From: a virus | Taxonomy: Duplodnaviria; Heunggongvirae; Uroviricota; Caudoviricetes | DNA length: 26,521 nucleotides | Strand: one strand, 5' to 3' | Virus record (IMG/VR): IMGVR_UViG_2875722834_000004 | Shown here: positions 14,548 to 17,196 of the stretch, piece by piece | How positions within the stretch are numbered: the first letter of the stretch is position 1 | How the letters are laid out: each line of letters opens with the position of its first letter | Notes under the pieces: generated by a model | Database searches by the model: none | What the model saw: only the letters and a program-made list of their open reading frames with translations | Told to the model about the DNA's origin: nothing | Position numbers and translations under genes: made by a program

Positions 14548-14859
14548 ATGACTCAAGACTATGAACTGGTTGTGAAAGGAGTCCGTAATTTTGAGAATAA
14601 AGTTACGGTAACTGTAGCCTTACAGGACAAAGAACGCTTTGACGGTGAAATTTTTGACCTGGATGTCGCCATGGACCGTGTTGAAGGAGCTGCGCTGGAG
14701 TTTTATGAGGCAGCAGCCAGAAGGAGCGTCCGGCAAGTCTTCCTGGAAGTAGCAGAAAAATTGTCAGAAAAAGTTGAGTCTTATCTGCAGCATCAATACT
14801 CCTTTAAGATTGAAAATCCTGCCAATAAGCACGAGCGTCCTCATCATAAATATCTATGA
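14548..14859 (+). CDS. ydfR: YdfR-like protein (DUF1327), 103 aa
   Basis: Position between holin and endolysin; stop overlaps the endolysin ATG (ATGA). Confidence 0.75.
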   Translation: MTQDYELVVKGVRNFENKVTVTVALQDKERFDGEIFDLDVAMDRVEGAALEFYEAAARRSVRQVFLEVAEKLSEKVESYLQHQYSFKIENPANKHERPHHKYL

Positions 14860-15048
14860 ACACAAAAATCAGATACGGCCTGTCGGCTGCCGTTCTGGCG
14901 CTGATTGGTGCTGGCGCATCTGCTCCTCAGATACTTGACCAGTTTCTGGACGAAAAAGAAGGTAACCACACAATGGCATACCGCGATGGTTCTGTGAACC
15001 GCCCCGGGAATCCTGGAGACTAAACTTCCTGAGAAAGAGGTAAACAGG

Positions 15049-15375
15049 ATGACTAAAAATACTCGTTTTTCCCCCGAAGTCCGTCAACGGGCAGTCCGTA
15101 TGGTTCTGGAAAGTCAGAGCGAATATGACTCACAATGGGCGACAATTTGTTCCATTGCTCCAAAGATTGGCTGTACGCCGGAGACTCTGCGTGTCTGGGT
15201 TCGCCAGCATGAGCGGGATACCGGGGGCGGTGATGGAGGGCTCACCACCGCTGAACGTCAGCGTCTGAAAGAGCTGGAACGTGAAAATCGTGAACTGCGC
15301 CGCAGTAACGATATCCTTCGCCAGGCTTCCGCTTATTTTGCGAAGGCGGAGTTCGACCGCCTCTGGAAAAAATGA
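15049..15375 (+). CDS. IS629 OrfA (transposase N-terminal/HTH protein), 108 aa
   Basis: [23 protein letters not shown]...; leucine-zipper-like C-terminus; overlaps orfB in the -1 frame. Confidence 0.9.
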
Positions 15376-16262
15376 TGCCACTGCTGGATAAGCTGCGTGA
15401 GCAGTACGGGGTCGGACCGCTATGCAGCGAACTGCATATTGCCCCGTCAACGTATTACCACTGTCAGCAACAGCGACATCATCCGGATAAACGCAGTGCC
15501 CGTGCGCAGCGCGATGACTGGCTGAAGAAAGAGATACAGCGCGTATACGATGAAAATCACAAGGTATACGGTGTGCGTAAAGTCTGGCGTCAGTTGTTAC
15601 GGGAAGGTATCAGAGTGGCCAGATGCACTGTGGCACGTCTCATGGCGGTTATGGGACTTGCCGGTGTTCTCCGGGGTAAAAAGGTCCGTACGACCATCAG
15701 CCGGAAAGCCGTTGCCGCAGGCGACCGCGTAAACCGTCAGTTCGTGGCAGAACGACCTGACCAGCTGTGGGTGGCTGATTTTACTTACGTCAGCACATGG
15801 CGGGGCTTCGTCTATGTGGCGTTCATCATTGATGTGTTTGCCGGATACATCGTGGGGTGGCGGGTCTCATCGTCCATGGAAACGACATTCGTGCTGGATG
15901 CACTGGAGCAGGCGTTATGGGCCCGTCGACCGTCCGGCACGGTCCATCACAGTGATAAAGGTTCTCAGTATGTATCGCTGGCCTACACACAGCGGCTTAA
16001 GGAAGCCGGATTACTGGCATCAACAGGAAGTACAGGCGACTCGTATGACAACGCGATGGCGGAGAGCATCAATGGTCTTTACAAAGCGGAGGTAATACAC
16101 CGTAAGAGCTGGAAAAACCGTGCAGAAGTGGAACTGGCCACACTCACGTGGGTGGACTGGTATAACAATCGACGATTGCTGGAAAGGCTGGGCCATACTC
16201 CTCCGGCAGAAGCAGAAAAAGCTTATTATGCTTCCATCGGAAACGATGATCTGGCAGCCTGA
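15372..16262 (+). CDS. IS629 OrfB (DDE transposase catalytic domain), 296 aa
   Basis: rve-type DDE domain (WVADFTYV...[10 protein letters not shown]...[13 protein letters not shown]); -1 frame relative to orfA, consistent with IS3-family OrfAB frameshifting. Confidence 0.9.
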
Positions 16263-16698
16263 GTTCACAGATAAAACACTCTCCAGGAAACCCGGGGCGG
16301 TTCACTGGCATATGGACCATCTGTCGGGGTGCCACAGTGGTGGATGGAAAAACCGTTTTTCCCAATATGAAACTGTCGAAGGAAAAATGCGACCAGGTCA
16401 ACGCCATTGAGCGTGATAAGGCGCTGGCATGGGTGGAGCGCAATATTAAAGTACCACTGACCGAACCACAAAAAGCGGGTATCGCGTCATTTTGTCCCTA
16501 TAACATTGGCCCCGGTAAGTGTTTCCCGTCGACGTTTTATAAGCGGCTGAATGCTGGTGATCGTAAAGGTGCATGCGAAGCGATTCGCTGGTGGATTAAG
16601 GATGGCGGACGCGATTGCCGCATTCGTTCAAATAACTGTTACGGTCAGGTTATTCGTCGTGACCAGGAGAGCGCATTAACCTGCTGGGGGATAGAACA

Positions 16699-17196
16699 GT
16701 GAATCAGATATTCATGGTGATTTTTCTCGTGTTGTCAGGATTTATCGTCGGAAATGTCTGGAGCGACCGAGGATGGCAAAAAAAATGGGCGGAACGTGAT
16801 GTTGCCGCATTATCACAAGAGGTAAATGCTCAATTTGCTGCTCGAATAATTGAACAGGGGCGAACTATAGCCCGTGATGAGGCTGTTAAAGATGCGCAAC
16901 AGAAATCTGCTGAAATTTCTGCCAGGGCTGCTTATCTGTCTGATAGTGTTAACCAGTTGCGTGCCGAAGCAAAAAAATATGCCATACGCCTTGACGCAGC
17001 GAAGCATACCGCAGATCTTGCCGCTGCCGTCAGAGGCAAAACAACCAAAACCGCCGAAGGAATGCTCACCAACATGCTCGGAGATATTGCAGCAGAAGCT
17101 CAGCTTTATGCTGAAATTGCTGACGAACGCTACATCGCAGGAGTGACTTGTCAACAGATCTATGAATCTTTAAGAGATAAAAAGCATCAAATGTAG
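16699..17196 (+). CDS. rzpQ: Rz-like i-spanin (RzpQ-like), 165 aa
   Basis: GTG start overlapping the endolysin stop (GTGA); N-terminal transmembrane segment followed by a coiled-coil-rich periplasmic domain. Confidence 0.75.
16892..17146 (+). CDS. rzoQ: Rz1-like o-spanin lipoprotein embedded in the +1 frame of Rz (RzoQ-like), 84 aa
   Basis: Signal peptide with lipobox (LIVLTSC) followed by a proline-rich mature region; entirely inside rzpQ. Confidence 0.7.

Follow-up and report, generated by a model that had tools for sequence, protein, structure and literature searches.

An IS629-type element of the IS3 family splits the endolysin gene of an Escherichia coli prophage, and the insertion could either have disarmed a lethal lysis module under selection or represent chance damage to a prophage. 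The window analysed, i.e., the whole stretch of 26,521 nt, points to the latter. With a probability of about 90%, an intact and presumably active IS629-type element recently entered the Qin gene rrrQ in one E. coli strain, and the event most likely represents neutral or nearly neutral prophage decay. No sequence evidence contradicting this explanation was found.

The window is classified as the whole Qin cryptic prophage. It matches E. coli HH107 from just past rspB to a truncated ydfJ, which is the position of Qin, and its gene order is that of the K-12 feature annotated as 'cryptic prophage Qin'. K-12 has the same gene order, essQ-ydfR-rrrQ-rzpQ/rzoQ-cspI, at the same chromosomal place (rspB to ydfJ), but its rrrQ is not interrupted by an IS. 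Further differences of the present Qin variant from that of K-12 are intact int, xis, and exonuclease genes, the absence of dicA, dicC, dicF, rem, and hokD, and a truncated relE. The prophage is defective, with truncated terminase and tail-fibre genes and no head or tail genes. The neighbouring lysis genes and the antiterminator gene are as follows:

11672–12424, + strand: ydfT, intact, Q-type antiterminator, the expected driver of the late/lysis operon (HH107 and K-12 annotation; one residue different, T249M)
14328–14543, + strand: essQ/essD, intact, P21 S-type class II holin (pinholin); Pfam PF04971 'Bacteriophage P21 holin S', 116.7 bits; identical to K-12 EssQ
14548–14859, + strand: ydfR (DUF1327), intact; Pfam PF07041, 179.9 bits; protein as in K-12
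16699–17196, + strand: rzpQ (Rz-type spanin, DUF2514), intact; Pfam PF10721, 133.1 bits; one residue different from K-12 (A35V)
16892–17146, + strand: rzoQ (Rz1-type lipoprotein, 84 aa), intact, inside rzpQ; identical to K-12 rzoQ b4689

The GTG start of rzpQ overlaps the rrrQ stop codon. NCBIfam gave no further information on the holin, YdfR, Rz, and Rz1. The initial annotation had described these four genes as intact and only the muralytic step as knocked out. All four reading frames are indeed kept, with EssQ, RzoQ, and YdfR equal to the K-12 proteins and RzpQ one residue off, and the second statement is right at the level of coding sequences.

When positions 14856–14994 and 16308–16702 were joined, i.e., the IS and one CTG were removed, a frame of 534 nt (177 codons plus stop) was restored, as had been predicted. 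It equals E. coli K-12 rrrQ (b1554) at every nucleotide, and its product is identical to the annotated RrrQ of HH107. Residues 33–167 of the restored 177-aa protein matched Phage_lysozyme (Pfam PF00959) with 84.5 bits (cutoff 22.3), and the protein was aligned to P21 R (3HDE) and RrrD of DLP12 (4ZPU). Excision followed by homology search, proposed earlier as the check for this locus, thus returned K-12 rrrQ with a lysozyme domain, and the interrupted gene was correctly recognized as a lysozyme-family endolysin.

RrrQ is classified as a P21-R-type endolysin with a predicted SAR segment. Its residues 9–174 align to residues 5–163 of P21 R (3HDE/3HDF), the prototype SAR endolysin, from the Gly/Ala-rich N-terminus to the C-terminus, and residues 8–27 (GLSAAVLALIGAGASAPQIL) pair with the SAR segment in the full-length R21 structure, 3HDE. 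The Glu-Asp-Thr catalytic triad (E35, D44, and T50 in P21 R) is conserved in the 3HDE alignment (motifs 'eg', 'y+d', and 'g+wt+c', respectively) and shared with P21 R and RrrD. RrrQ is likewise paired with a P21 S-type holin, but it is a distant paralogue of the two proteins (E-value about 2e-16, well below 50% identity) and has extra cysteines. The interrupted gene is composed of these parts:

14856–14994, + strand: rrrQ 5' fragment, codons 1–46 and base 1 of codon 47, carrying the predicted SAR membrane segment and two catalytic residues, E35 and D44
14992–14994, no strand: left copy of the target-site duplication, CTG
14995–16304, + strand: complete IS629-type element of the IS3 family, 1310 bp from boundary and end analysis
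16305–16307, no strand: right copy of the target-site duplication, CTG
16308–16702, + strand: rrrQ 3' fragment, from base 2 of codon 47 to the stop, with T50 and the remaining lysozyme fold

The IS sits after nucleotide 139 of rrrQ. It had been placed between codons 46 and 47; the exact site follows base 1 of codon 47 (GGC, Gly47), but the practical result is the same. On the protein, this position falls between D44 and T50, and the interrupted rrrQ would be a null allele from which no active endolysin could be made, because the IS parts catalytic E35 and D44 from T50. The reading frame of the 5' fragment continues from residues 1–46 into nine IS-derived residues (VNRPGNPGD) and ends at a stop codon at 15021–15023. 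This 55-aa product had no record in an exact-protein look-up. On the other side, the first in-frame start 3' of the IS is a GTG at 16337. Assembly GCA_000530055.1, the sole one with a 121-aa 3' fragment, was considered as a second lesion and rejected, as its DNA has an intact rrrQ and the fragment reflects the start choice of the gene caller.

The ends of the element confirm the 25-bp imperfect inverted repeats of the initial annotation:

14995–15019, + strand: left terminal inverted repeat (IRL) with a 5'-TG start, 23 of 25 bases matching the reverse complement of the right end
16280–16304, + strand: right terminal inverted repeat (IRR) with a CA-3' end

The left end is TGAACCGCCCCGGGAATCCTGGAGA and the right end, as reverse complement, is TGAACCGCCCCGGGTTTCCTGGAGA, with 23/25 matching bases and with TGAAC...GTTCA as the termini. 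The length of 1310 bp lies within the approximately 1.2–1.55 kb of the IS3 family, the imperfect inverted repeats are of the TG...CA type of this family, and the CTG on both sides agrees with its short direct target duplications of 3–4 bp. Many annotated transposase loci of the IS3 family on E. coli chromosomes and plasmids were 100% identical to the element over all 1310 bp, by which a chance resemblance to an IS was ruled out. The identity was 99.5% to LC567824 and LC567828, labelled 'IS3 family IS629' by their depositors, and 96.3% (49 mismatches) to the copy of EDL933, labelled IS1203 by PGAP. Nucleotide identity of at least 95% to the reference is the ISfinder rule for isoforms. IS1203 and IS3411 are treated as isoforms of IS629, and IS629 sub-types 4–5% apart have been described (PMC3271280). 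By these comparisons, the IS in rrrQ is a complete member of the IS629 group, named via depositor-annotated copies and not via the Shigella sonnei reference, and because of the 96.3% identity and 49 mismatches it is classified into a sub-type other than the main O157:H7 type (PGAP IS1203).

Coding capacity and the frameshift apparatus of the element are as follows:

15049–15375, + strand: orfA, 108 aa, with HTH_Tnp_1 (Pfam PF01527, 49 bits; NCBIfam IS3 transposase N-terminal part)
15330–15446, + strand: ALIL frameshift-stimulating pseudoknot (Rfam RF01497, 120.2 bits; gathering score 50)
15367–15372, + strand: A6 slippery run in the orfA/orfB overlap (TGG AAA AAA TGA in the orfA frame)
15372–16262, + strand: orfB, 296 aa, with HTH_21 and the rve DDE integrase core (Pfam rve, 97.1 bits; NCBIfam transpos_IS3, 314.6 bits)

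OrfB has the Pfam domains HTH_21, rve, and rve_3, and its transpos_IS3 score compares with a cutoff of 160 bits. As in other members of the IS3 family, an orfA with HTH overlaps an orfB with DDE/rve, and a −1 frameshift signal is predicted. The two frames are predicted to be joined through the −1 frameshift into a 404-aa OrfAB, with putative slippage at the A6 run 15367–15372, and identical IS copies are annotated by PGAP as a single CDS marked 'programmed frameshift'. The initial claim of a complete IS629-group element is well founded, as OrfA and OrfB, the A6 run, the ALIL pseudoknot, and the 99.5% identity to annotated IS629 all accord with it. Likeness to IS629 extends over the length of 1310 bp, the TG...CA ends with imperfect inverted repeats of about 25 bp, OrfA of 108 aa and OrfB of 296 aa with −1 frameshift and ALIL pseudoknot, the 3-bp duplication, the location in a prophage, and the identity to the depositor-annotated copies from Stx phages. 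Its ORFs and the pseudoknot are intact, and the IS is presumably active.

E. coli HH107 represents a near-isogenic empty site, with five SNPs in 25,208 bp. It matches both flanks, and these overlap on its genome by exactly CTG, present there as a single copy, as in many other empty sites. The bases beyond the two CTGs in the window are unlike (T vs. A), and hence the duplication is exactly 3 bp. An empty site with one CTG constructed in silico was 100% identical to rrrQ over 400 bp in many genomes. Empty sites with two CTGs in relatives had been named beforehand as the observation that would overturn the duplication; the relatives show a single CTG, and the claim of a real 3-bp target duplication survives. 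The filled left junction, searched as a 160-bp query, was present in none of 5,426 complete E. coli genomes, and a scan for the exact 30-mer junction (ACCGCGATGGTTCTGTGAACCGCCCCGGGA) gave no matches in genome and metagenome contig collections. When the interval 14856–16702 was compared with complete E. coli genomes, 37 had at least 80% cover, and all those inspected had IS629-type elements at other sites, inside lysozyme genes or close to them, and not the same allele. The insertion is recent and private to one strain, as the filled junction was recovered neither from the 5,426 genomes nor from the genome and metagenome contig collections. The recency proposed earlier agrees with this absence and with the five SNPs per 25.2 kb to HH107.

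According to the preferred explanation of near-neutral decay, the element would have entered rrrQ by copy-out-paste-in transposition, as expected of an IS3-family member, and would have generated the usual 3-bp CTG duplication. This would divide the SAR segment with E35/D44 from T50 and the remaining lysozyme fold, giving a null endolysin, and the remaining lysis genes would retain their reading frames. Near-neutral decay, and not a selected step, is most likely, given that the prophage was defective before the insertion and does not normally express its late genes. The gene rrrQ is not always silent, as its transcripts in K-12 rose 9.1-fold under enrofloxacin (PMC12287860), and effects on fitness, for instance through lysis upon SOS induction or expression of Q, may exist.

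An assembly artefact, with the repeated IS misplaced and the true locus uninterrupted, would agree with a junction that occurs in no other sequence searched, and IS629-type elements are multi-copy repeats of the kind often mishandled by assemblers. It is nevertheless extremely improbable, as no base is missing from either end of the IS, the flanks are unbroken over 15 kb and 10 kb, and the duplication is an exact 3-bp copy of sequence that is single in the empty site, while misassembly makes no target duplications. Hardly more credible is a regulatory insertion, whose chief effect would be changed expression of rzpQ, rzoQ, and cspI via polarity or an outward IS promoter, and not the loss of RrrQ. 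The IS and the operon point in the same direction, and translational coupling is probably lost because the rzpQ start overlaps the rrrQ stop. Against this, no promoter-like site was found inside the IS or directed out of its right end, in a promoter and terminator scan whose counts were at the level of shuffled sequences and therefore uninformative, and an effect of this kind would come on top of the endolysin null, not in its place.

The initial annotation saw in the IS a plausible route to domesticating a lethal lysis module. Adaptive domestication, i.e., a selected endolysin knock-out that disarms the lethal cassette while the rest of the prophage is kept, would fit the loss of the muralytic gene among otherwise intact reading frames, the at least three other independent hits of IS629-type elements in lambdoid lysozyme genes, and the induction of rrrQ by a quinolone in K-12 (PMC12287860). 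It is, however, unlikely and the claim is not upheld. Qin was cryptic beforehand and its K-12 copy has an identical intact rrrQ; the filled allele occurs in no other genome searched; and the intact lysis cassette is evidently tolerated, because 4,359 of the 4,369 genomes carrying the rrrQ region have it in one piece. Once triggered, a holin abolishes the membrane potential, and the cell dies with or without endolysin; hence the lethality would not be removed while the pinholin gene remains untouched. Furthermore, delta-rrrQ was without phenotype in published assays, MG1655 delta-rrrQ being unchanged in peptidoglycan and vesicle assays (PMC12287860). The other insertions lie at dispersed sites and frequently spare the lysozyme, as expected from the preference of IS629 for prophage DNA (PMC3271280). 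The single strain-private insertion bears no sign of selection, and near-neutral decay is preferred here.

The insertion was compared with eight further ones of the IS629 type in lambdoid lysis cassettes: EC21GDE043, ESDR8, O157:H7 17B6-2, PSS-11, SW071614, APEC E12053, EPSSH018, and O103:H2 12009. They share the same or a closely related IS (96–100% identity), and their duplications are mostly of 3 bp, with 4 bp in one and none in another. IS629 is known to yield duplications of 3–4 bp, and 62% of its copies in O157 genomes lie within prophages (PMC3271280). The retrieved loci have the same orientation, possibly as an effect of the search, in which only same-strand pieces were joined. The eight insertions occupy eight different sites, at about nt 60, about nt 283, or nt 433 of the lysozyme gene, inside ydfR, or intergenic, and split the lysozyme gene in three cases (EC21GDE043, ESDR8, and O157 17B6-2). 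A hot spot at codon 47 was rejected, as none of the eight hits this codon and the target duplications vary in sequence. Only tentatively, and with low probability, may IS629-type elements strike lambdoid lysis cassettes, including that of Qin, above chance, with lysis-disabling strikes preferentially kept. If so, IS629 would be a recurrent agent disarming prophage lysis, and rrrQ here the fourth independent lysozyme-splitting site. Scattered independent insertions fit such selection and the known general preference of IS629 for prophages alike.

The locus should be annotated as an IS629-interrupted rrrQ pseudogene, and beyond that the significance is small; this is ordinary prophage decay of an already known kind and raises no new question on lysis or prophage domestication. 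The source strain and HH107 are a natural near-isogenic filled/empty pair, usable for the role of the Qin endolysin in lysis, vesicle release, and stress survival. Typing by IS629 sites is already in use for O157:H7, and the private junction is a handy strain-specific marker.

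The inserted element lies at 14995-16304, is 1310 bp long, and starts with TGAACCGCCCCGGG and ends with CCCGGGGCGGTTCA. Its terminal 25 bases on each side are inverted repeats, with 23/25 positions matching, and CTG directly flanks it at 14992-14994 and 16305-16307. The target duplication is exactly 3 bp, because the bases beyond both CTG copies are not the same. Two ORFs are coded on the element:

15049-15375, OrfA, 108 aa, HTH_Tnp_1 match
15372-16262, OrfB, 296 aa, HTH_21 match and rve DDE core; NCBIfam IS3 transposase model, 314.6 bits

They overlap at the A6 run 15367-15372 (TGG AAA AAA TGA), which is enclosed by an ALIL frameshift pseudoknot (15330-15446; 120.2 bits, gathering score 50), and PGAP calls identical copies one "programmed frameshift" transposase. 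Many E. coli copies, both chromosomal and plasmid-borne, match all 1310 bp at 100% identity, so the element is intact and presumably active. It is 99.5% identical to Stx-phage copies annotated as "IS3 family IS629" by depositors and 96.3% identical to the EDL933 copy, labelled IS1203 by PGAP. Sub-types of IS629 differ by 4-5%, and IS1203 and IS3411 are counted as isoforms (Rump et al., PMC3271280). Judged against the depositor-annotated copies, the name IS629 proposed in the initial annotation thus seems reasonable, and the element is not of the main O157 sub-type. A copy 100% identical to it lies under the phage 21-type prophage integrase gene in AF017626.1 (phage 21 int region, E. coli EC38), a further case of this sub-type inside prophage DNA.

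The element splits rrrQ, a putative SAR endolysin gene of the phage P21 R type. The insertion had been placed between codons 46 and 47; the exact point is after nucleotide 139, the first base of codon 47. The ORF from 14856 enters the element and stops after 55 codons, giving a product of 46 native residues and nine from the IS. Joined, 14856-14994 and 16308-16702 make 534 nt, or 177 codons and a stop. At the nucleotide level this restored gene is identical to K-12 rrrQ (b1554). Its product has a Phage_lysozyme domain (84.5 bits), and residues 9-174 align with full-length P21 R (3HDE) and RrrD (4ZPU), with the Gly/Ala-rich N-terminal segment and E35, D44, and T50 kept. The IS divides E35 and D44 from T50 and the remaining fold, and the first in-frame start past it is GTG at 16337; going by the known catalytic residues of the family, neither fragment would be an active enzyme. 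In L008 (GCA_000530055.1, CBWF010000067.1; 3833-4366), a public 121-aa "lysozyme" call begins at an internal GTG of DNA encoding the full 177-aa RrrQ; this is a start-site miscall, open to confusion with truncation.

Upstream of ydfR lies a gene of the P21 S holin family (116.7 bits), which, together with the P21 R-like endolysin, points to a pinholin and SAR-endolysin cassette. Apart from rrrQ, the lysis genes are intact, as had been noted: EssQ and RzoQ are identical to those of K-12, YdfR is identical at the protein level, and RzpQ has A35V. The Q-type antiterminator YdfT has T249M. The cassette is flanked by cspB and cspI, and Rfam recognized cspA-type thermoregulator leaders upstream of them:

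13198-13590 (+), leader upstream of cspB
17413-17798 (+), leader upstream of cspI

The window spans the entire Qin prophage, from the integrase beside rspB to truncated ydfJ. E. coli HH107, which has the uninterrupted site, matches 1-14994 and 16305-26521 at essentially 100%, and the two matches overlap by exactly CTG. Base by base, HH107 has one CTG at the site and differs across the prophage by only five SNPs in 25,208 bp (window positions 11446, 12417, 12586, 14042, and 25722), that at 12417 altering the penultimate YdfT codon (T249M). Of the 4,369 genomes having the sequence of a 400-bp empty site built in silico, 4,359 have it as one contiguous stretch, many of them 100% identical and annotated rrrQ. 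With a single CTG at these empty sites, the duplication is real and survives the check proposed in the initial annotation, that relatives might already have two CTGs there. A search of 5,426 complete E. coli genomes gave no case of the IS-bearing junction, nor did species-representative genome and metagenome collections, and protein look-up returned no record of the truncated product. The insertion is recent, as had been proposed, and, as far as these collections reach, private to the source strain. Misassembly does not flank a complete IS with an exactly duplicated target, which makes an artefact of assembly very unlikely. Element and gene are both known already; the insertion site alone is new.

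Elements of the IS629 type, 96-100% identical, also occupy eight different positions in lambdoid lysis cassettes of further E. coli genomes, three of them splitting the lysozyme gene. Their duplications are mostly 3 bp.

Other IS629-type insertions in lysis cassettes (genome, position, target duplication)
SW071614, in ydfR, AGC
PSS-11, between truncated ydfR and rrrQ, CTA
EC21GDE043, lysozyme nt ~60, GTG
ESDR8, lysozyme nt ~283, GAG
O157:H7 17B6-2, lysozyme nt 433, AGG
APEC E12053, upstream of lysozyme gene, GTCG
EPSSH018, downstream of lysozyme gene, GTT
O103:H2 12009, holin region of Stx1 phage, none

All eight lie away from codon 47, with differing duplicated sequences, and a site-specific hot spot was therefore rejected. 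That insertions strike the lysis cassette, or persist in it, more than elsewhere in prophage DNA is improbable; this would be the sole reading with any novelty.

Holin triggering is lethal even without endolysin, so with the pinholin untouched the cassette would stay armed. The proposal that the IS disarmed, and thereby domesticated, a lethal lysis module does not fit the evidence. Qin in the window is already a cryptic remnant, with terminase, tail-fibre, and relE genes truncated and head/tail genes absent; the K-12 "cryptic prophage Qin" has the same rrrQ uninterrupted, and thousands of genomes tolerate the intact cassette. Deletion of rrrQ in MG1655 left peptidoglycan labelling, peptidoglycan content, and vesicle output unchanged, although the rrrQ transcript is up 9.1-fold under enrofloxacin (PMC12287860). 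The start of rzpQ overlaps the stop of rrrQ, and the insertion may thus act on rzpQ, rzoQ, and cspI through regulation or polarity; a consensus scan recognized no promoter-like site in the IS, with site counts at the level of shuffled sequence. Copies of IS629 make 3-4 bp duplications, and 62% of the copies in O157 genomes are in prophages (Rump et al., PMC3271280). The simplest reading is that this insertion would be one more neutral or nearly neutral hit in prophage DNA, the usual landing place of IS629. The sequence finding is real and the IS and gene were correctly identified, but their evolutionary interpretation was over-read.

Three genes degraded in K-12 Qin are intact here:

20-1315 (-), integrase
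1335-1586 (-), excisionase
1659-4166 (-), exonuclease, 835 aa

Compared with K-12 Qin, the window's Qin (20-4166, 4193-5900) has ydfD and dicB but not dicA, dicC, and ydfA-C, leaving the division inhibitor dicB without its usual repressor gene; rem and hokD are also missing, and no Rfam match to the DicF sRNA was found in the window. A "sok antitoxin" match at 7274-7445 (+) (Rfam, 104 bits, gathering score 59), just 5' of a partial ISNCY transposase gene and with no Hok-like ORF nearby, is probably a hok/sok remnant. By the HH107 annotation of about 10373-10607, relB is intact but relE is cut after about 39 codons and adjoins a fragment of another gene; this lineage has lost the toxin of the Qin RelBE pair. 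An Rfam IS009 match (220.9 bits) lies inside tfaQ at 22984-23182 (+).
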